64,000 bases of DNA from Gemmatimonadota bacterium (GTDB lineage Bacteria > JAAXHH01). A program made the position numbers and the translations under genes. A model generated the notes under the pieces. That model saw only the letters and a list, made by a program, of their open reading frames with translations. It did no database searches and had not been told where the DNA came from. Where the stretch lies: positions 19,173 through 83,172 of the forward strand of contig VXRC01000025.1 of the NCBI GenBank assembly GCA_009838645.1, given 5' to 3'. Shown one piece after another: positions 6,661-26,824 of this stretch (the first letter of the stretch is position 1; the number at the start of each line of letters is the position of its first letter).

Positions 6661-7407
6661 ATGCGCACCCTGGTCCTCACGATCGAATACGACGGCACCG
6701 ACTTCCTCGGCTGGCAGCTCCAGCCCGAGGGGCGGACCGTTCAGGGCGTCCTGGAGGAAGCGGTGCGCACCATCCTGCGGGCCGAACTCCGGGCGACCGC
6801 GGCGGGCCGCACGGACGCCGGGGTGCACGCCACCGGGCAGGTCGTCCACTTCAGGACGGATTCGGACATGGTGGTGGACCGGCTGAAGATGGGGCTGAAC
6901 GGGGTGCTGCCGCCGGACGTGCGCGTGCTCGAAGCCACGCAGGCGCCCGATGATTTCCATGCCCGGTTCAGCGCGGTGGGACGACGGTACGTTTACCGGA
7001 TCATCCGGCGCCCGAGCGCCATGCGAAGGCACCAGGCCTGGCACGTGGCCTACCCGGTGGACGTGGACGCCATGCGCCGGGCCTGCGCTCCCCTGTTGGG
7101 CCGCCACAACTTCACTTCCTTCTGCCAGGCCACGTCGACGGCCGACGGCACGGTTTGCGAGGTGCGGGAACTGGAATGGATCGAGGCGGAGGACGAACTC
7201 CGCCTGCGTATCGAGGCGAACCGCTTTCTCCACCACATGGTGCGGACGATCGTGGGCACGGCCGTGGATATCGGACGGGGACGGTGGCCGGAGAGCGTCA
7301 TGGCGGAGATGCTTGCGGCGAAAGACCGCCGTGCCGCGGGCGCCAACGCCCCGGCCCGCGGGCTCTGCCTCGAGGCGGTGCGCTATCCTTCCGAATTCGG
7401 GATCTGA
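6661..7407 (+). CDS. truA: tRNA pseudouridine(38-40) synthase
   Basis: IEYDGTDFLGWQ, AGRTDAGVHA, FLHHMVR. Confidence 0.96.
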   Translation: MRTLVLTIEYDGTDFLGWQLQPEGRTVQGVLEEAVRTILRAELRATAAGRTDAGVHATGQVVHFRTDSDMVVDRLKMGLNGVLPPDVRVLEATQAPDDFHARFSAVGRRYVYRIIRRPSAMRRHQAWHVAYPVDVDAMRRACAPLLGRHNFTSFCQATSTADGTVCEVRELEWIEAEDELRLRIEANRFLHHMVRTIVGTAVDIGRGRWPESVMAEMLAAKDRRAAGANAPARGLCLEAVRYPSEFGI

Positions 7408-16576: not shown

Positions 16577-17629
16577 TTAAGCAGTTGAGGTCAGCTGCTT
16601 CAGCGCGACCGTCAATACCTCGACGGAGCGCAGGTACTCTTCCAGGACGATGTGCTCGTCCGGCGTATGGTCCAGGCTGGAGTCGCCGGGTCCGTAGGCC
16701 GCGATCGGGCACTTCCAGGCCGGTCCGACGATACACATGTCCGACGTGCCCGTCTTCTTCTTGAAGGTCGGCCGGCCGCCTTTCTGGCGGATACCCCGCA
16801 ACAGCGCCCGGATCAGCGCCGTGTTCTTAGCGGCGACCACGCCCGGCAGCCGCTGGTCGCATTCGATCTCCGCCGGGCCCGCCTGTTCCATCACGAAACC
16901 GATCAAACTTTCCAGGTCGTAACCGGGCGGCACGCGCACCGAGAAGTACGCCTCGACGCCCTCGGTCAATCCCTCGTCCGTAGTGTTGAATCGTCTCAAC
17001 TCGAGCCGGGGCGACCCGAATTCGCTTCCCGTGGCCTGGTCGGCGACGCGGGCTTGCATGGCGTTGTACAGGTCGATCGCCCGTTCGGCGGCGCGCCTGT
17101 GGTCGCCGGCGTGATGGGCGTTGGGCTGCTCGAGGCGATAGTCGAACCCCACATGGCCCTTGTACCCGATGGTGACGCTGTCCCAGCCGCTCGGTTCGCC
17201 GATGAATACGCAGTCGGGACGCATGCGGTCCACCAGGTGGCGGGCGCCCTTCGAGGTGGGGCATTCCTCCTCCACGGCGCCGACGACGGTGATCCGGCCG
17301 CCGGTGGTTTCCGTGAGCCGGCTCGCGGCGGCGGCGAAGGCGGCCAGGGGACCCTTGGCGTCCACCGTGCCGCGGCCGTAGAGCCTGCCCGATTCCTCCC
17401 GGATAGGAACGATCCCGGGTACCGTGTCAATATGCCCGATCAGGGCAATGTGCGGTTCGCCGCGGCCAATCTCGCCCACCGCGTTCCCGGCCTCGTCCAC
17501 GCGGGCGCGGAGGCCCCGACGATCCATGGCGTCCACCAGGCAGGAAACGGCCTCGCCCTCCTGCGTGGAAGGGCTGTACCGCTCGACCAGGTCCCGCAGC
17601 AGCGCGATGTCGTCACGGGCGGTACTCAT
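16577..17629 (-). CDS. lysK: [LysW]-lysine hydrolase (M20 family)
   Basis: LIGHIDTVPG, GRGTVDAKG, VEEE, GTSDM, YGPGDSSLDHTPDE; last gene of the LysW operon. Confidence 0.92.
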   Translation of the reverse strand: MSTARDDIALLRDLVERYSPSTQEGEAVSCLVDAMDRRGLRARVDEAGNAVGEIGRGEPHIALIGHIDTVPGIVPIREESGRLYGRGTVDAKGPLAAFAAAASRLTETTGGRITVVGAVEEECPTSKGARHLVDRMRPDCVFIGEPSGWDSVTIGYKGHVGFDYRLEQPNAHHAGDHRRAAERAIDLYNAMQARVADQATGSEFGSPRLELRRFNTTDEGLTEGVEAYFSVRVPPGYDLESLIGFVMEQAGPAEIECDQRLPGVVAAKNTALIRALLRGIRQKGGRPTFKKKTGTSDMCIVGPAWKCPIAAYGPGDSSLDHTPDEHIVLEEYLRSVEVLTVALKQLTSTA

Positions 17630-18799
17630 TTAAGCCTCCAACGATCCCAGCACCGCGCCCACGGTCTCTACGACCCGGTCGATCTCCTCCCTGGTAATCG
17701 ACAGGGGCGGGAGGAAGCGCAGCACCGTGTTGCCCGCGGGCAGGGCCATCACGCCGCGTTCCATGAGTCCGCGGAGGACGGGGGTGACCCGTCCCTTCAT
17801 CTCGACGCCGATGATCAGGCCCATGCCCCTGATCTCCCGGACGAAAGGCGCGTCCAGTGCCGCGAGGGCATCCCGGAAATACGCGCCGTTCTCCCGGGCG
17901 TTCTCGATGAGTCCTTCCTCCTCCAGCACGCGCAGCGTGGCCAGGCCGGCCGCGCAGACCACCGGACCGCCACCGAAGGTGTTGCCGTGGGACATGGCGG
18001 GGACGCCCCGGACCGTTTCGGCGCAGAGCGTCGCGCCCACGGGCAGGCCGCCGGCCATGGCCTTGGCCAGGCAGAGCATGTCCGGCCGGAGATCCTGGTG
18101 CTCGCAGGCGAACATGGCACCGGTCCGGCCGAATCCGGTCTGCACTTCGTCCACGATGAACAGGGCGCCGCGCTCCCGGCACAGGCCCGCCACGCGGTTC
18201 AGATACGCGCCGTCGCCGATGCGGACGCCGCCCTCGCCCTGCACCGCTTCCAGGATCACCGCCGCCGTCCCGTCGCCGATGGATTCCTCCATGGCGGAGG
18301 CATCGTTGTATTTCACGTGGGTGAAACCGGGAACGAGGGGTTCGAAGGGAGCGCGGTACTTGGGGTTCCAGGTCGCGCTCAGGGCCCCGAAGGTACGTCC
18401 GTGAAATCCGCGCTGGGCCGCGATGATGCCGGTCCGCCCCGTGGCGACACGGGCGAATTTAAGCGCCGCCTCCACCGCCTCCGTACCCGAATTGCAAAGG
18501 AAGAGCCGGTCCAGCCCCTCCGGGGCGACCCGGGTCAGGGCCGTGGCCAGTTCCGCCCGGAGGTCGTTGTAGAAGGTGTCTGGACAGATCACGAGCCGCT
18601 CCGCCTGCCGCGCGATCGCCTCCGTCACGGCCGGATGGCAGTGGCCTACGTTGGCCGTGCCGATCCCGCCGATGCAATCGATGTACTCCTTGCCGTCACT
18701 GTCCCAGAGGCGGGCGCCGCTGCCCCGGACGATCACCACGTCCCGCTTGGGCAGAATGCCCATCGACGCCTGGTTTTCCAGAGCCTGGTAGTCAGTCAT
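17630..18799 (-). CDS. lysJ: [LysW]-aminoadipate semialdehyde transaminase (class III)
   Basis: YIDCIGGIG, CNSGTEAVE, FHGRT, DEVQTGFGRTG, LAKAMAGG; start re-called at MTDYQALE. Confidence 0.9.
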   Translation of the reverse strand: MTDYQALENQASMGILPKRDVVIVRGSGARLWDSDGKEYIDCIGGIGTANVGHCHPAVTEAIARQAERLVICPDTFYNDLRAELATALTRVAPEGLDRLFLCNSGTEAVEAALKFARVATGRTGIIAAQRGFHGRTFGALSATWNPKYRAPFEPLVPGFTHVKYNDASAMEESIGDGTAAVILEAVQGEGGVRIGDGAYLNRVAGLCRERGALFIVDEVQTGFGRTGAMFACEHQDLRPDMLCLAKAMAGGLPVGATLCAETVRGVPAMSHGNTFGGGPVVCAAGLATLRVLEEEGLIENARENGAYFRDALAALDAPFVREIRGMGLIIGVEMKGRVTPVLRGLMERGVMALPAGNTVLRFLPPLSITREEIDRVVETVGAVLGSLEA

Positions 18800-18942
18800 T
18801 TTTCGCTCCGATTTACGATTTCGTATCGCCTCGAGTCGTCCTGCGCGGTGCGCTGGGTTCCCCGGATGGCCGCTTCGTTCGGCCGCCGCTGTCCGATCAT
18901 TCTTCTCCGCGGCCACAACGCGATCGTTCTGTCCGGCGGCCG

Positions 18943-19740
18943 CTACCCGATCACCGTGCCCGCGCCGCGCAGGGCCGCCGTGACCGGTTCGGGTATCCGG
19001 CCGTCCCCCAGGATCACCTGGTCCACGCCGACCTCCAGCGCCTCCTTCGCGCCGAGCAGCTTCTTCTTCATGCGGTCCCTGGCGTGGGTCGCGATCGCTT
19101 CGTCGATTTCGTCCCGGGATATCCGGGGTATCAGTGTCTCCTCGTCATCCGCATCCTCCAGGAACCCCGGCGTGTTGGAGAGGATGACCAGCCGTTCCGC
19201 GCCGAGGGCGTCGGCGATCACGGCGGCCGCGCGGTCCCCGTCAATGTTGATCATCTCGCCTTCGTAGCTGATGGCGGGGGGACTGACGACGGGCAGATAA
19301 CCCTGGTCGAGGAGCGTGGTCAGGAGCGACACGTTCGCCCTTTCGACCCGGCCGGTGTAGTCGTCCCGCAGGATCTTCGTCCTGCCGTCCTCCACGATGC
19401 GGATATTGGGTTTCCGGCGGCCCTCGAGCAGGCGGCCGTCCACGCCGCTCAGGCCGACGGCGTTGACCCCGAGCTGCTGCAGTTTCTCGACGATGCGGGT
19501 GTTGCGCTTTCCGCAGTACACCATGGTGAAGATGTCCAGTGTTTCCTGATCGGTGACCCGGCTCGTGTATCCCGACGGCGACGTGACCATGCGGGGCGGC
19601 TTGCCCAGCTGCTCGGAGATCTGGTTCAATTCGTCGGAAGCGCCGTGCACCAGCACCAGCGGCTCGGTCTGCCGGGCGAGGTCTTCCAGGACGTAATCCA
19701 GGTTGATGCCCCGGCTTCCGCCCGTCTTCACCACGATCAT
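18943..19740 (-). CDS. lysZ: [LysW]-aminoadipate kinase
   Basis: VVKTGGS, LVHGAS, SPSGYTSRVTD, NIDGDRAAA. Confidence 0.92.
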   Translation of the reverse strand: MIVVKTGGSRGINLDYVLEDLARQTEPLVLVHGASDELNQISEQLGKPPRMVTSPSGYTSRVTDQETLDIFTMVYCGKRNTRIVEKLQQLGVNAVGLSGVDGRLLEGRRKPNIRIVEDGRTKILRDDYTGRVERANVSLLTTLLDQGYLPVVSPPAISYEGEMINIDGDRAAAVIADALGAERLVILSNTPGFLEDADDEETLIPRISRDEIDEAIATHARDRMKKKLLGAKEALEVGVDQVILGDGRIPEPVTAALRGAGTVIG

Positions 19741-21008
19741 TCAGCATTCCCTTCCTTAACGGCGGTCACGGCCTCCGGCCGGGGCACGGACGCCTGGGTG
19801 CTGTCCGCCATGCGCCGGATCATCACGACGCCGTTTCTCACCTCTTCTTCGCCGAGGATCAGGGTATAGGCGGCGCCGAGGCGGTCGGCCTGTCTCATCT
19901 GGGCCTTCAGGCTCCGGTCCTCCCACAGTGCCGTCGCGCCTACGCCGGCCGCGCGCAGCTCCTGCGCCAGGACCACCGCGGCAGACTTGGCCTCCGCACC
20001 GAGATAGGCGACGAATACCCGCGGCTTCGGCACCCCGGGAGGCTCGATCCCCTCCTGCTTCATCGTGAGTATGATGCGTTCGATGCCCGAGGCGAATCCG
20101 ATCGCCGGCGTCTCGGGACCGCCGACCATGCCGATCAGCCCGTCGTAGCGGCCGCCGCCGCATACCGCGTTCTGCGCCCCGATGCCCTCGGCCCAAACCT
20201 CGAACACGGTCTTCGTATAGTAGTCGAAACCCCGCACCAGGCGATGGTTGACCTGGTAGGGCCGCCCCAGGTCGTCCAGGTAGGACCTCAACTTGCCGAA
20301 GTGGCTTTCGCATTCGTCGCACAGGGAATCCGCGATCCGCGGCGCTTCGTCCGCGATCGCGCGGCAGGTCTCGTTCTTGCAGTCCAGCAGCCGGAGCGGG
20401 TTCTGCTCGTAGCGGCGCGCGCATTCGCCGCAGATCCCGTCCAGGCGCTCCGCGTACCAGGCCCGCAGCGTTTCGATGTATCCCGGACGGCACGCCGGGC
20501 ACCCCGTGCTGTTCACCTGGAAGGACAGGTTCTTGATGCCGACCGCTTCGTAGATCTGCCAGGCGACCTGCATGACCTCGAGATCGATTGCCGGGTCCTG
20601 GCTGCCCAGCACTTCCACGTCGATCTGGTAGAACTGGCGGTACCGGCCCGCCTGGGGACGCTCGTACCGGAAGGCCGGACCGATGGTGAAGAGCCGCAGG
20701 GGCTGGGGCCGGCCGTGCAGCTTGCGCTCCGCGTAGGCCCGGCAGATCCCGGCGGTGAACTCGGGGCGCAGGGTCATTCGCTCCTCGTTGCGGTCGAGGA
20801 AGGTGTACATCTCTTTCTCGACGATGTCGGTGGATTCGCCGACGCTCCGTTCGAAGAGGCCGGTCTGCTCGAAGACCGGCACGTCGATCTGCTCGTAGCC
20901 GAAGAGTTCGCAGACCCGGCGCGTGGTCTCGGTGACGTGGCGCCAGTGGGCCTGGTCTTCGGGCAGGATGTCGTAGGTGCCTCTCGGTGCCCTGTAGTTC
21001 ATATTCAT
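19737..21008 (-). CDS. hisS: Histidine--tRNA ligase
   Basis: APRGTYD, LRPEFTA, FRYERPQAGRYRQFYQ, LVRGFDYY, GGGRYDGL, anticodon-binding domain present (so not HisZ); ATGA overlap with lysZ. Confidence 0.96.
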   Translation of the reverse strand: MNMNYRAPRGTYDILPEDQAHWRHVTETTRRVCELFGYEQIDVPVFEQTGLFERSVGESTDIVEKEMYTFLDRNEERMTLRPEFTAGICRAYAERKLHGRPQPLRLFTIGPAFRYERPQAGRYRQFYQIDVEVLGSQDPAIDLEVMQVAWQIYEAVGIKNLSFQVNSTGCPACRPGYIETLRAWYAERLDGICGECARRYEQNPLRLLDCKNETCRAIADEAPRIADSLCDECESHFGKLRSYLDDLGRPYQVNHRLVRGFDYYTKTVFEVWAEGIGAQNAVCGGGRYDGLIGMVGGPETPAIGFASGIERIILTMKQEGIEPPGVPKPRVFVAYLGAEAKSAAVVLAQELRAAGVGATALWEDRSLKAQMRQADRLGAAYTLILGEEEVRNGVVMIRRMADSTQASVPRPEAVTAVKEGNAE

Positions 21009-21021
21009 CCTATACCGGGTG

Positions 21022-22065
21022 CTAGACCGGGTGGAGGCCCGGAAACTCCAGGCCCGTCCGCTCGTCCCACCCGTGCATGATGTTGAGGGCCTGCACGGCC
21101 TGTCCGGCCGCGCCCTTGACCAGGTTGTCCAGCGCGCCCATGACCACGACCCGGTCGCTGTGCTCGTCGCGCTCGAACCCGATGTCGCAGTAATTGGTCC
21201 CCGCGAGAAACTTCGGATCGGGATACCGGAACACGCCCTGGCGTTCCTTGATGATGCGGATGAAGGGTTCTTTCTCGTAGGCTTCCCGGTAGATTCCCCA
21301 GATATCCCTGTCGGACAGATTGCCGTTTGCGAAAGCGTGCGTGGTCATCAGGATGCCGCGCACCAGTTCGATGGCCGTCGCCGAGAAATGGACCCTGGGC
21401 GCCTGCTCGCCGAAGGTGAGCTCCTGCACGATCTCCGCCGTGTGGCGATGGCCCGTGGGCTTGAAGGACCGCACGGCCCCGCTGCGGTCCGGGTGATGGG
21501 TGGACCGGTCGGCCCGGTGTCCCGCCGCGGAGGAGCCGATCTTGCCCTCCATGAACAGCCGGGAGGGGTCGACGGCGCCGGCCCTGACGAGGGGCGCCAG
21601 CGACAGGATCGCCGTGGCGGCCAGGCACCCGGTGCACGCGACGCATTCGGCGTCCCTGATCTCGTCCCGGTAGAGTTCGGCCAGGCCATACACGAACCGG
21701 CCAAGGACGCCGGGATGGGCATGGGCATGTCCGTACCAGGTCGGATAGTCCGCCGGATCGCGCAGGCGGAAGTCCGCGCTCAGGTCGATGACGCGGGCCG
21801 ACAGGCCGGAGAAGTCGTCCCATCTCTTCATCGCCTCCCCGTGGGGCAGGCACAGGCACAGGACGTCGCAGGGCTCGAGGTCGGCCAAGGCGCCGAACTT
21901 GAGGTCCGTGACCCTCCGAAGGTTCGGATGGGACCGGCCGACGGGCTTGCCCGCGAGCGATTCCGACGTCACCTGCCCGATTTCGATTTCCGGGTGGAAC
22001 AGGAGCAGGCGGAGCAGTTCCCCACCGCCGTATCCGGACGCGCCGGCGATAGACACCTTGATCAT
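21022..22065 (-). CDS. lysY: [LysW]-aminoadipyl-phosphate reductase (ArgC family)
   Basis: [42 protein letters not shown]. Confidence 0.92.
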
Positions 22066-22901
22066 GATTGGGCCACCTTTACCAGATAATCGATGATTCG
22101 GCCGGGAATGTCCACGCCCGTCGGTTGTATGCTGTTCCGGAATTCCATGGTGTAGTTGACCTCGTTGACCAGGATCCCGTCCGGCGATTCCAGCAGGTCG
22201 ACGGCCACCACGCCGCCACCCACCGCTTCCGCGGCGCGGGCGGAAAGCATCCCCACGTCACCCTCCACGGGACAGTCGGCCGTCGTCCCGCCCAGGGCGG
22301 TGTTGGTCTTCCAGTGGTCCGAGTACCGGTAGACGGCGCAGATGGTCTCGCCGTCGACCACGAAGGATCGGATATCGCGGCCGGGCTTCTCCACGTACTC
22401 CTGGATGTAGATCACCGAATGCTGATAGGACCCCAGCGTCTCCTTGTGCTCGAGCACCGCTTCGGCGGCATGACGGTCGTTGACCCGCGCGATGAGGCGC
22501 CCCCACGAACCGATGGGCGGCTTGACCACGACGGGATAGCCCATGGATTCCATTTCCTCCAGGGCCGACTCGGCGGTAAACGCGACGCGGGCCTTCGGCG
22601 TGGGCACCCCGTGGTCCACCAGCGCCATGGTCGTCAGGAACTTGTTCCCGCACACGCGGGCCACCTCGTAGTTGTTGACGGTCCTGATGCCGCCGGCGTT
22701 GAGTATCTTCAGCGAGTTGAGGGCCCTGGAATGGTTGATGCACCGCTCGAGTATGACGTCGTGGTCGTACCGGTGGTTCTCCAGGTCGAAGACGATGCGC
22801 CGGTCGTCCAGCCGGTCGAAGACGATACCCCGTTTCGCCGCGGCCTCGAAGAGCATCTTCTGTTCCGTGGAAACGATGGACAGCAGCATGCCGATCTTCA
22901 C
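22062..22901 (-). CDS. lysX: Alpha-aminoadipate--LysW ligase (RimK ATP-grasp), catalytically intact copy
   Basis: [46 protein letters not shown]. Confidence 0.92.
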
Positions 22902-23752
22902 GAGTTGCGTCCCCCCTGTGCCACCGTGTCCGCCACGTAGTCCATGATCTTCCCCGGTATATTGACGCCGGTGACGTCCGATGCGTCCGAAAGCCCGGAC
23001 GGCGGGCCCATCTCCTGTACGAACCAGGCATCCTTCGTGCGAACCATGTCCACCACCGCGATTCCGCCGCCGATCGCCCGGACGGCTGCGACCGCCAGGT
23101 CGTTCAGTTCCTCCGTGACGGGCTCCTGCTTCATCAGGCCGCCGGCGGTGATGGTCCCGATCCAGTGGTGGGTCAGCACCGATACGGCGGCCACCGTCTC
23201 GTCGCCGACCACGTACGCCCTGATGTCGTGTCCGGGCGAATCGATGTGCTTTTGCATGAAGAAGATGGAGTGGTGATAGGCGCCGAGGATGCGTTTGTGC
23301 TCCAGGACCGTCGCCGCCGTATACTTGTCCCCGATCCGGGAAACGAGCTGGCCCTCGGGACCCTCCACGGGCCGGAGGACGACCGGGTACCCCATGTCCT
23401 CCATGGCTTCCAGGGCGGAACGCGGCGTATACGCCACGCGCACTTCCGGCACCGGCACCCCGTTCTCCCGCAAGGCCAGGGACGTCAGCAGCCGGTTCCC
23501 GTACGTCTCCACCACCGGCTGGCGGTTCACCGTCGGAATGCCCCAGTGGTCGAAGACGGTCAGCGCGTACACGGCGCGATGGTGATCGATACAGCGCTCC
23601 AGGACCACGTCCAGGTCCATATGACGCCGATCCAGTTCGAAGACCAGCCGCGTGTTGTCGATCGTCGTCACGTCGATGCCGCGGCGGCCCGCCTCGGCGA
23701 TCAACCGCTTCTCGTCCTTCCTGATACGCGACAGCACGATGCCCAATTCCAT
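22898..23752 (-). CDS. LysX/RimK-like paralog with degenerate ATP-grasp motifs
   Basis: Colinear with lysX but [21 protein letters not shown] and QEMGPP replace the catalytic motifs; start re-called at MELGIV (GGAGG upstream). Confidence 0.82.
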
Positions 23753-23831
23753 TAATTCCACGTCCTCCGGGTATCCCGCGTCCTTTCGGATATCCCGCGT
23801 TCCTTGCGCCACATGCAATGGCGCCGAATGC

Positions 23832-23878
23832 AAAAAAAAGAGCCGGCCTCTTCGCTCAATCGAAGAGGAACACGGCTC
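23832..23878 (-). terminator. Rho-independent terminator/attenuator upstream of lysX'
   Basis: Minus strand GAGCCG-tgtt-CCTCTTCG-attgag-CGAAGAGG-c-CGGCTC followed by T8. Confidence 0.88.
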
Positions 23879-23916
23879 CCAACTGTTCCCGTGGTCCCGT
23901 AATCCCTTTCGCAGGA

Positions 23917-23994
23917 TTACCGAGGGGCCCGATGAGCGGACGAACGCAAATCACAATCATGTTTACCATGTTTATGTTTCATTCGTTTGCTCAT
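23917..23994 (-). CDS. Putative Lys/His leader peptide MSKRMKHKHGKHDCDLRSSAHRAPR (25 aa)
   Basis: AAGGA 7 nt before ATG; four Lys (AAA) and four His (CAT) codons; followed by hairpins and a terminator. Confidence 0.7.
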   Translation of the reverse strand: MSKRMKHKHGKHDCDLRSSAHRAPR

Positions 23995-24022
23995 CGTGAT
24001 TTCCTTCCATCCGTCCGCGGGC

Positions 24023-24190
24023 TTACTCTCCCCAGTCTTCCTCTTCTTCCGGTGCCAGCGCGAACTCCAGCGGGTCTACGCTGACCACTTCCAATTCCGC
24101 GCCGCACTCCGGGCACGTGATGATTTCGCCAACCACGACATCATAATCCAGGGTGATCTCGGCGCCACATTCCGGGCAAATCCCGCTCAT
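24023..24190 (-). CDS. lysW: Amino-group carrier protein LysW (55 aa; not in ORF track)
   Basis: [55 protein letters not shown]: two CPEC motifs and C-terminal EDWGE. Confidence 0.97.
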
Positions 24191-24288
24191 GATACCCCCG
24201 TTTTACACAAATGCAGCCTTGGAACGCATCTTTTTCGAAGGTCCATTCACCCTACGGGGAAGGCCTTTCCTCCTCAAAGAACGGACGC

Positions 24289-24316
24289 AATATAGGGTGC
24301 GCGCTAAGGGTGTCAA
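24289..24316 (-). promoter_or_regulatory. sigma70 promoter of the lysW operon
   Basis: Minus strand TTGACA(24316-24311)-16 nt-TATATT(24294-24289). Confidence 0.65.
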
Positions 24317-24325
24317 GCGCTTTTT

Positions 24326-26824
24326 TCAACCCTCCTCGTCGCCGTCCGATCCGGGTGATTCGTCCGTCTCGGAAGTCGCCGGATCGTCCTCTTCGTCGCC
24401 CGGCGTAATCCTGGAAACATCGATCACCCGGTCCCCCTCGCCCAGGTTGATGAGCCGGACGCCCTGAGTGTTCCGGCCGATGGGGCGCAGGTCGCGGACC
24501 GGCAGGCGTATGATGAGGCCGTTCGTGGTAATGATCATCAGCTCGTCTTCGTCGGAGACCGCGTGAATCGACACGACGGGGCCGTTGCGTTCGCTGGTGC
24601 GTATGTTGCTCACGCCCTTGCTGTGGCGGCGGGTCAGCCGGTAGTTCTCGATGTCCGTCCGCTTCCCGTAGCCGTTCTCCGTGACGGACAGCAGCGTGGT
24701 GTCCCGATCCGACGCCAGCATGCCCACGACCCGGTCGCCTTCGCCGAGGCGTATGCCCCGCACCCCCTGAGCGCCGCGGCCCATCGTCCGGACGTCGCTC
24801 TCGTGGAAGCGGACGGCCTGGCCGTTCTGGCTGGCGATGACGATGTCGTTGTCGCCGTCGGTCAGCAGGGCCTCGATGAGGGCGTCGCCCTCGAGGATGT
24901 TCAGCGCCACGATGCCGTTCCGCCGGGGATTCCCATAGGCCGACAGCACGGTTTTCTTAACCAGGCCACCCCGCGTCACCATCAGGATATAATGCTCGTC
25001 GTCGAAGTTCCTGATCGGCAGGAAGGCCGCGATGCTCTCTCCTTGGTCGAGCTGCAGCAGGTTGACGACGGCCTTGCCGCGGGCGGTGCGGCCGGCTTCG
25101 GGGATCTCCCACACCTTGAGCCAGTAGCATTTGCCGCGGTTCGTGAAGAACAGGATGTAGGAGTGGGTCGAGGCGGAGAAGAGGTGCTCGACGAAATCCT
25201 CTTCCCGGGTCTTCATGCCGGTGATCCCCTTGCCGCCGCGGTTCTGGCTGCGGTAGGTGTCCATGGGCAGGCGCTTGACGTAGCCGGCGTGAGATATGGT
25301 GATGACCATTTCCTCGTCGGCGATCAGGTCCTCGATGCTGAGATCGCCCTCGATGTCGATCAGCTCGGTCCGCCGTTCGTCGCCGTAGCGCTCCTTCAGG
25401 TCGATCATCTCGTCCTTGATGATCTGCATCCGCCGTTCCAGGCGCGAGAGGATGTCCCGGTAATCGGCGATCCGCGCGACCAGCTCTTCGTATTCTTCCT
25501 CCAGCTTGTCTCGTTCCAGCCCGGTCAGGCGCTGCAGGCGCATGTCCAGGATGGCCTCGACCTGGGCGCGGGACAGGGCGAACTCGTCTCCCAGGACCTC
25601 CATGGCCTCCTCGCCGGTATGCGATCCGCGGATGACTTCGATCACGCGGTCCACGTTGTCCAGCGCGACGCGCAGGCCTTCCACGATATGAGCCCGCTGC
25701 TCGGCTTTCTCGAGGTCGAAGGTGGTCCGGCGCACCAGCACCTCGTGACGGTGGTCGATGAAGTGCTGGATGCACTCCTTGATGTTCAGGACCCGGGGCC
25801 GCCCGTCCACGAGCGCCAGCATGGTGACGCCGATGGTGGTCTCCAGCGGCGTCATCTTGAAGAGGTGGTTGAGCACGATGTTGCCCGGGATGTCCCGCCG
25901 CACGTCGATGGCGATGCGCATGCCCGACCGGTCCGACTCGTCCCGTATGTCGGTAATGCCCAGGATCTGCTTCTCCCGGACGAGGTCCGCGATCTTCTCG
26001 ATCAGGCTGGACTTGTTGACCTTGTAGGGGATCTCCGTGACGACGATGGTTTCCTTCTCGCTTTGCTCGTGCACCTCGATCGTCGTGCGGGCGCGCACCT
26101 TGATCTTCCCGCGGCCGGTGTGGAAATACTCGTTGATCGCGTTGCGGCCGTAGATGATGGCGCCGGTGGCGAAATCGGGTCCCTGGATGTGCGCGGCGAG
26201 CTCCCCGATCGTGATTTCCGGGTGGTCGATCACCGCCACGATACCGTCCACCACTTCGCCGAGGTTATGGGAAGGGAGGTTGGAGGCCATGCCCACGCCG
26301 ATGCCGAGCGAGCCGTTGCAGAGCAGGTTGGGGAACTTGCCCGGCAGCACGGTCGGCTCGTCTTTCGACTCGTCGTAGTTGGGCATGAAATCGACCGTGT
26401 TCTTGTCTATATCCTCCATCATCTCGATGGCCAGGCGGGACATCCGCGATTCGGTGTACCGCATGGCGCCCGGCGGATCGCCGTCGACGGATCCGAAATT
26501 GCCCTGGCCGAAGACCATGGGGTAGCGCATGCTGAAGGGCTGGGCCATCCGCGCGAGGGTATCGTACACGGCCAGGTCGCCATGGGGGTGGTAGTCCCCG
26601 ATCGTCTGGCCGACGATCTTGGCGCACTTCCGCGTGGGCCGTCCCGGCGTGAGGTTCAGGTCGCGCATCGCCACGAGAATGCGCCGCTGGGACGGCTTGA
26701 ACCCGTCACGGACGTCCGGGATCGCCCGGGACAGGTTCACGCTCATGGAGAAGTCGAGATAGGAACTCTTCATCTCGTCTTCGATGAAGATCGGCTGGAT
26801 GTTGTCGTGTTGTTCTACCGCCAT
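24326..26824 (-). CDS. gyrA: DNA gyrase subunit A
   Basis: RAIPDVRDGFKP, YHPHGD, AMRYTE, GyrA-box QNRGGKG, six-blade C-terminal domain. Confidence 0.97.
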   Translation of the reverse strand: MAVEQHDNIQPIFIEDEMKSSYLDFSMSVNLSRAIPDVRDGFKPSQRRILVAMRDLNLTPGRPTRKCAKIVGQTIGDYHPHGDLAVYDTLARMAQPFSMRYPMVFGQGNFGSVDGDPPGAMRYTESRMSRLAIEMMEDIDKNTVDFMPNYDESKDEPTVLPGKFPNLLCNGSLGIGVGMASNLPSHNLGEVVDGIVAVIDHPEITIGELAAHIQGPDFATGAIIYGRNAINEYFHTGRGKIKVRARTTIEVHEQSEKETIVVTEIPYKVNKSSLIEKIADLVREKQILGITDIRDESDRSGMRIAIDVRRDIPGNIVLNHLFKMTPLETTIGVTMLALVDGRPRVLNIKECIQHFIDHRHEVLVRRTTFDLEKAEQRAHIVEGLRVALDNVDRVIEVIRGSHTGEEAMEVLGDEFALSRAQVEAILDMRLQRLTGLERDKLEEEYEELVARIADYRDILSRLERRMQIIKDEMIDLKERYGDERRTELIDIEGDLSIEDLIADEEMVITISHAGYVKRLPMDTYRSQNRGGKGITGMKTREEDFVEHLFSASTHSYILFFTNRGKCYWLKVWEIPEAGRTARGKAVVNLLQLDQGESIAAFLPIRNFDDEHYILMVTRGGLVKKTVLSAYGNPRRNGIVALNILEGDALIEALLTDGDNDIVIASQNGQAVRFHESDVRTMGRGAQGVRGIRLGEGDRVVGMLASDRDTTLLSVTENGYGKRTDIENYRLTRRHSKGVSNIRTSERNGPVVSIHAVSDEDELMIITTNGLIIRLPVRDLRPIGRNTQGVRLINLGEGDRVIDVSRITPGDEEDDPATSETDESPGSDGDEEG

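Follow-up and report, generated by a model that had tools for sequence, protein, structure and literature searches.

A conserved Lys/His-codon leader and intrinsic terminator inside a LysW operon of uncultured bacteria: a candidate ribosome-mediated attenuator

The spacer between lysW and lysX in a 64,000-nt stretch of Gemmatimonadota DNA (the whole of which is called the window here) contains what is almost certainly a real, conserved cis-regulatory element. A 25-codon open reading frame rich in lysine and histidine codons is followed by a hairpin over its stop codon and by a strong intrinsic terminator, and a further hairpin spans most of the frame itself. The leader sits within the operon, between lysW and lysX and not at the 5′ end of the transcript, as lysW (24190-24023) adjoins it on its upstream side. 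We consider it probable that this is a translated leader whose translation controls the terminator, and we lean towards the more specific reading of a ribosome-mediated transcription attenuator inside the operon that senses the charging of tRNA-Lys. That the leader senses lysine and histidine together, its interleaved AAA and CAU codons making a single ribosome responsive to how well tRNA-Lys and tRNA-His are each charged, is a tentative proposal; sensing of lysine alone through the leader seems to us rather unlikely.

The genes on either side of the element lie on the minus strand in the following order.

Ending at 24329, minus strand: gyrA.
24289..24316, minus strand: promoter-like site of the sigma-70 type, TTGACA-16-TATATT, 11/12, from a consensus scan only.
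24023..24190, minus strand: lysW, amino-group carrier protein (PF21344; TIGR01206 at 75.7 bits against a cutoff of 53.2).
About 270 nt, minus strand: the lysW-lysX spacer, which holds the leader ORF, the hairpins and the terminator.
16577..23752, minus strand: the putatively regulated block, all seven genes from lysX-like to lysK.
23752-22898, minus strand: lysX-like, the first ligase (238 bits, below the NCBIfam LysX equivalog cutoff of 275.6).
22901-22062, minus strand: lysX, the second ligase (324 bits, above the NCBIfam LysX equivalog cutoff of 275.6).
22065-21022, minus strand: lysY.
21008-19737, minus strand: hisS, full-length HisRS (equivalog, 490 bits against a cutoff of 287).
19740-18943, minus strand: lysZ.
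18916-17630, minus strand: lysJ.
17629-16577, minus strand: lysK.

The two LysX-type ligases, lysY, hisS, lysZ, lysJ and lysK bear out the preliminary description of this DNA, which had named lysine-pathway enzymes plus hisS as the genes downstream of the leader. The promoter-like site lies just past the gyrA stop and about 90 nt 5′ of lysW, and a consensus scan of the interval from lysW to the leader found no further such site. Gene order in the operon is identical in four genera and one metagenomic sister lineage, and hisS is placed between lysY and lysZ in all of them. The tandem pair of LysX-type ATP-grasp genes (22062-23752, minus strand) is likewise kept in all four genera; the ligase that fails the LysX cutoff is the gene directly behind the candidate attenuator. 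The operon is probably one for lysine, because paralogues of lysY and lysZ (40% and 32% identical, of the argC/argB type) sit together on another contig (G000 contig C27, 62905-64657), which suggests that a separate conventional arginine route is encoded there. Arginine was considered as the product of the operon and set aside on this ground, since with canonical argC/argB paralogues elsewhere the operon need not make it.

In the same genome, which is 97% complete, hisS is single-copy; a genome-wide search for a second copy found none. Throughout the phylum hisS lies between lysY and lysZ, so that an essential synthetase gene is located behind a strong terminator, and with the only hisS in that position substantial read-through must happen anyway. 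ARAGORN lists 45 tRNA genes, tRNA-SeC among them, and no tRNA-Lys, presumably owing to an assembly gap. One sister lineage (L159) has a lysY-hisS gap of 307 nt (6773-7080) in place of 13 nt, in which a small hairpin precedes a U-rich tail (CUGGAUUUCAUAUCCAG UACCGUUUUAUU); Rfam gave no match in this gap. The same lineage carries the leader with the fewest His codons (MNRRNKFKQKHIWDEPRSSVYTVHL).

Within the spacer itself we noted the following features.

24002..24006, minus strand: Shine-Dalgarno AAGGA, 7 nt 5′ of the leader ATG.
23917..23994, minus strand: leader ORF MSKRMKHKHGKHDCDLRSSAHRAPR, 25 codons plus TAA (ATG at 23994, TAA at 23919-23917).
23959..23979, minus strand: codons 6-12, K-H-K-H-G-K-H (AAA CAT AAA CAT GGT AAA CAT).
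23930..23996, minus strand: hairpin H1, at whose base the start-codon region GAUGAGC pairs with codons 20-22, GCUCAUC.
23893..23929, minus strand: hairpin H2, whose 5′ arm consists of the last ORF codons and the stop codon.
23920-23899, minus strand: stop-codon hairpin pairing GUAAUCCU/GGGAUUAC.
23884..23890, minus strand: GGGAACA segment, candidate short antiterminator core, pairing with UGUUCCU of the terminator 5′ arm.
23832..23878, minus strand: intrinsic terminator GAGCCG..CCUCUUCG / CGAAGAGG.CCGGCUC + U8, about -22 kcal/mol.

All the parts that had been read from the sequence at the outset, namely a 25-codon ORF with an AAGGA ribosome-binding site and Lys and His codons, a hairpin over its stop codon, a segment able to pair with the terminator, and a 14-bp terminator with T8, are present on the minus strand. 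The pairing segment, GGACCACGG, is complementary to CCGUGUUCC at 8/9 positions with one C.U mismatch, and this pairing appears in the minimum-free-energy (MFE) structure of transcripts cut after the terminator 5′ arm. The terminator stem has 6+8 = 14 bp (23878-23840) and is followed by U8 at 23839-23832; the 3.8-Mb genome, at 62% G+C, has only 627 T-runs and 92 terminator-like sites, and this one ranks with the strongest 13. The spacer as a whole, taken as 273 nt, folds far more stably than shuffled versions of itself (z = -6.5).

The codon content of the leader is skewed. It has four Lys codons, each AAA, and four His codons, each CAT, one of them at codon 21, so that Lys and His occupy 8/24 codons, compared with a background of 5.5% in nine real genes from the window (binomial p = 2.8e-5). 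In those nine genes both are minor codons: Lys is encoded by AAA 15% of the time and His by CAT 30% of the time. A genome-wide scan for other leaders with a Shine-Dalgarno sequence, an ORF with codon runs and a terminator returned only this one and so gave no precedent in the lineage. The Shine-Dalgarno sequence is of the AGGAAA/GGGAAA type in nearly all same-genus genomes and of a weaker, AGAGAG type in the most divergent one.

We examined the conservation of the element in the 33 species or genomes, belonging to 6 genera, that represent the phylum in our genome collection. The lineage is uncultured; its public MAG records carry Gemmatimonadetes or Candidatus Latescibacterota labels, and the isolate names in those records suggest a sponge and coral origin. 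A DNA similarity search recovered the spacer from 24/24 same-genus genomes and from 0 other genera. When lysW-lysX spacers were extracted instead, the conserved Lys/His leaders that the preliminary description had proposed to look for in relatives were found in 28/28 genus members, each with a 25-codon ORF, and in a diverged sister version in genus G041 and metagenomic relatives (MNRRTKFKHKHIWDNTHSSVRTVHL, ...KFKPKH..., ...KFKQKH..., MIRRFKFKHKHIGDETRSSVHTVHL and MNRRNTFKHKHAWNKIRSSVRTVHS). These five sister-clade variants also have 25 codons, despite two compensating 2-codon indels between the clades. Across the 28 genus members the ORF is free of internal indels and both of its flanks have them, and in every leader variant the stop codon varies (TAA/TGA/TAG) at a constant position. 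Synonymous changes occur within the genus at codons 2, 3, 10, 13, 16, 22, 24 and 25; those seen in the leader variants include AGC/AGT, AAA/AAG, GGT/GGC/GGA, TTG/CTG/TTA and CCT/CCG/CCA.

Genus and sister clade together yield 13 distinct peptide variants, and what they all have in common is the length, [K/R]-R at codons 3-4, a core K-x-K-H (K6-x-K8-H9) and a Ser-Ser pair located in the H1 3′ arm. Every variant has at least three Lys codons in codons 2-15; the exceptions to the usual pattern are one variant with AAG at K6 and another that lacks K6 and has a Lys at codon 15. The His count over the same codons runs from 1 to 4, with one His universal, and two of the sister-clade variants have Pro or Gln where the core has its first His. 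The dual Lys/His reading first given to this leader is best supported for lysine, with three or more codons everywhere, and only partly supported for histidine, whose codons vary in number and are in several cases structural, as set out below. If the leader does sense both amino acids, arginine might be a further input, through the [K/R]-R pair at codons 3-4.

The peptide itself has changed considerably. The two clades have about 9/25 leader residues in common, compared with about 72% identity in LysW and in the first ligase, so selection at the protein level cannot be strong for the leader peptide itself; its divergence outside the Lys/His core fits a leader in which the codons matter and not a folded peptide. 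Within the genus, codons 1-21 are almost invariant and their third positions are as conserved as the others, a pattern that points to RNA-level constraint acting on top of coding and that could account for much of the apparent conservation of the peptide. These comparisons bear on a very improbable alternative, in which the basic peptide, with its His, Cys and Asp residues, would sense a metabolite or metal and halt the ribosome making it, in the manner of TnaC, SpeFL or CruR, and the halted ribosome would control the terminator. The high conservation of the peptide within the genus (KHKHGxHDCDLRS) speaks for such a sensor, as does folding, which suggests that in some orthologues the effect is largest when the ribosome is close to the end of the ORF; ornithine, tryptophan and copper are known to be sensed by leader peptides (reviewed in PMC12360218). 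Against it stand the loss of HDCD between clades (IWDNT/IGDET), with so few residues kept, and the equal conservation of synonymous sites within the genus, which points to RNA and not to peptide. The known examples, moreover, act on Rho-dependent termination, whereas the terminator here is intrinsic.

The terminator is more widespread than the leader. The lysW-lysX spacer measures 165-322 nt in this phylum, compared with 0-76 nt, and mostly under 10 nt, in other phyla, and a terminator stands between the two genes in all five lysW-carrying genera, including those without a Lys/His ORF. Its presence in both groups suggests that the terminator probably predates the leader. In the leaderless genera (L050/L077 (G026), L090, L165, L166 and L051/L078 (G045), L088, L163; G027 groups with G026) the spacer of 165-250 nt combines conserved hairpins with a strong terminator, such as AAUCGGGGAGGAAACUCCCCGAUUUUGUUUUU, and lacks a Lys/His leader ORF. 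One of these, the G045-like metagenomic contig L163, has an ORF preceded by a Shine-Dalgarno sequence at about 150-235 of the spacer that starts after the terminator and shortly before lysX and opens, like the leader, with MSK (MSKSMGGRGKGVRLFAYSPIRFLLHPF). Two genera that have the spacer terminator and lack the Lys/His leader also carry hisS in the operon, so operon content, and the presence of hisS in particular, does not predict a Lys/His leader. Of the original proposal that an attenuator matches the operon content, the conserved leader ORF and terminator stand and the match to hisS is weakened.

This distribution would also suit a constitutive partial terminator that merely sets stoichiometry, with more LysW carrier than enzymes, a non-regulatory small ORF and hairpins that serve mRNA stability or processing. 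The terminator is there with or without the Lys/His ORF, LysW is a stoichiometric carrier, and the only hisS lies beyond the terminator, where read-through is needed in any case. Such a terminator would, however, be expected to drift by compensatory change, and in the relatives, all of which have it, the terminator, including its loop, is nearly invariant, as is H1, with LysW differing by up to 30%. The fixed 25-codon frame, the constant stop position and the Lys/His bias would also be left unexplained, and we judge this account improbable.

The predicted RNA structure places several of the conserved codons in a new light. The H1 5′ arm contains the Lys and His codons, and its loop consists of codons 10-11, which are the variable ones. 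Since H1 is nearly invariant within the genus, covariation there is uninformative, and the same is true of the terminator; between the clades the base of H1 is maintained, AUG pairing with CAU, CGU or UAU at codon 21, and the basal stem in the sister clade shows G:C -> A:U (pair 5) and U:A -> U:G changes. H2 varies in sequence and is kept as a hairpin in all genus members, with C:G -> U:A compensations in its basal helix in two subgroups. These folds give several His codons a structural role: that for H21 is paired with the AUG, and the His9 and His12 codons pair with each other in a CAUG:CAUG stem in this genus. At codon 21, where the preliminary description had thought the stalling geometry clear, the sequence is the start codon's reverse complement and covaries with the AUG pairing, so the His at this position is better understood as a by-product of start-codon pairing. 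In the sister clade the K-x-K-H core codons are unpaired in the predicted H1.

Sequestration of the start codon raises the alternative of an attenuator that is gated by translation or by a factor and has no amino-acid-specific sensing, the Lys and His codons being incidental to the hairpin sequence. H1 would hide the start codon, and a ligand, a protein or folding kinetics would decide whether ribosomes load; a ribosome at the ORF end would then melt H2, whose 3′ strand would pair with the terminator 5′ arm and bring about read-through. The AUG is indeed paired by H1 in all lineages, with compensations, and H1 is nearly invariant at synonymous sites too. Yet the core and the number of Lys codons are kept in the sister clade even though those codons are unpaired there, and a gated attenuator acting alone would silence a biosynthetic operon whenever translation became slow. 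Nor did Rfam supply a riboswitch or T-box match. At gathering score Rfam matched nothing in the whole window, and at E <= 10 it returned for 23500-24500 only two chance miRNA matches on the opposite strand. A T-box leader was rejected as a candidate, no T-box covariance model matching at gathering score or at E <= 10, as was a lysine riboswitch (L-box), which had no Rfam match in the window or at one sister-clade locus.

Folding with a stalled ribosome bears on this alternative as well as on the preferred one. We computed equilibrium folds with a 28-nt ribosome mask at each codon, once keeping the RNA 5′ of the ribosome and once leaving it out. In full-length RNA the terminator stayed formed (P about 0.95) at nearly all ribosome positions; a full-length equilibrium that prefers the terminator would hold for classical attenuators as well. 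Transcripts ending after the terminator 5′ arm or loop and before its 3′ arm were folded too. In these, a 13-bp antiterminator candidate can form between the H2 loop plus 3′ arm (CGAAAGGGAUUACGG) and CCGUGUUCCUCUUCG of the terminator 5′ arm; in the window and close relatives it becomes the MFE structure, but only once the A site has reached codon 22, as a gated attenuator would have it. The cost of freeing the terminator arm is likewise highest with ribosomes at codons 16-24 in several orthologues, those of the sister clade included. The long H2-arm antiterminator is, however, absent from the second subgroup of the genus, and, taking these observations together, we regard gating of this kind as unlikely.

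An arrangement that would fit classical attenuation logic is also predicted. With the A site in codons 2-15, and at no other position or in ribosome-free RNA, the H1 3′ arm is set free and pairs in the MFE structure with the terminator apex; most genus members tested behave in this way, three of the eight intermittently. The pairing is no better than that of dinucleotide shuffles and was not seen in the sister-clade folds. The conserved GGGAACA:UGUUCCU helix, mismatched in this register in 5/28 sequences and represented by GUAACA:UGUUGC in the sister clade, forms in all folded states. The H1 3′ arm with the terminator top and GGGAACA:UGUUCCU are our antiterminator candidates. Over 15 orthologues, the ensemble cost of freeing the terminator 5′ arm had no consistent dependence on stall position. 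Masked folding at each codon, the check put forward with the original proposal, therefore gave no stall-dependent antiterminator that was consistent across orthologues, at the Lys/His cluster or at any codon.

The preferred model, leader-peptide attenuation, builds on the conserved ORF, its codon bias, H1, H2, the terminator and the operon content; from these we infer that the ORF is translated and that stalling at its Lys or His codons is the signal. Transcription would start in front of lysW, so that the carrier protein is always made, and the 25-codon leader would be translated next. When charged tRNA-Lys is scarce, the ribosome would stall in the H1 5′ arm at the three to four AAA codons among codons 3-11, and scarcity of charged tRNA-His may cause the same stall at CAU codons 7, 9 and 12, the putative tRNA-His sensor. 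A ribosome stalled there would keep H1 from forming, the downstream RNA would refold and the terminator hairpin would fail, allowing RNA polymerase to continue into lysX-lysX-lysY-hisS-lysZ-lysJ-lysK. With ample charged tRNA, the ribosome would finish and depart, H1 and H2 would form, and the terminator would stop most transcripts. Because hisS is single-copy and tightly coupled within the operon, a leader with His codons would place HisRS under homeostatic feedback.

If confirmed, the element would add to the known range of leader-peptide attenuation a candidate phylum whose members are uncultured and live mostly in association with sponges and corals. Its position inside the operon would mean that LysW, a stoichiometric carrier, is made constitutively and the enzymes are regulated, and a single leader would tie the control of an amino-acid pathway to that of an essential aminoacyl-tRNA synthetase specific for another amino acid. 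Should the bivalent reading be true, a shortage of lysine would raise the LysW-pathway enzymes and uncharged tRNA-His would call forth more HisRS, with LysW escaping control. The principle is a textbook one, and the gain lies in diversity and design logic and not in a new mechanism. Two design features lend themselves to testing: the K-H-K-H alternation, which takes the place of an uninterrupted series of AAA codons, and the sequestration of the start codon at the foot of H1. The literature library that was searched contained no description of a leader within a lysW operon.

By analogy, the nearest functional relative of the element would be the Lys-codon leader of Thermus thermophilus. Tsubouchi et al. 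(J Biol Chem, 2005) are said to have described a leader-peptide attenuator of the lysine (alpha-aminoadipate/LysW) gene cluster in that organism; the leader reportedly sits at the cluster's 5′ end, with tandem codons for Lys alone. Both combine a short Lys-codon ORF with an intrinsic terminator placed to control lysine genes of the AAA pathway. The present leader differs in lying inside the operon, after lysW, and in alternating Lys with His (K-H-K-H) ahead of a block that includes the only hisS; the likeness considered here is one of function.

Multivalent attenuators are familiar from enterobacteria, where thrL responds to Thr and Ile and ilvL to Leu, Val and Ile, and the hisL leader has a six-segment structure. 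Like them, the element described here has one leader with interspersed codons for several amino acids and successive hairpins before a terminator, although its mutually exclusive pairing scheme is only a candidate. The amino acids read by thrL and ilvL share one pathway, whereas here the second would match an aminoacyl-tRNA synthetase embedded in the operon. For histidine, leader peptides upstream of a hisS paralogue and of hisZ have been reported in bacilli (Naville and Gautheret 2010, PMC2965389). These also place His codons in a leader ORF before a gene of the HisRS family; theirs form a run of His codons and the gene is controlled directly, whereas here one to four His codons are interspersed with Lys codons, and hisS comes only fifth among the genes behind the terminator. 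Taken as analogies, the multivalent leaders and the His leaders of bacilli offer precedents for the two halves of the dual-sensing idea.
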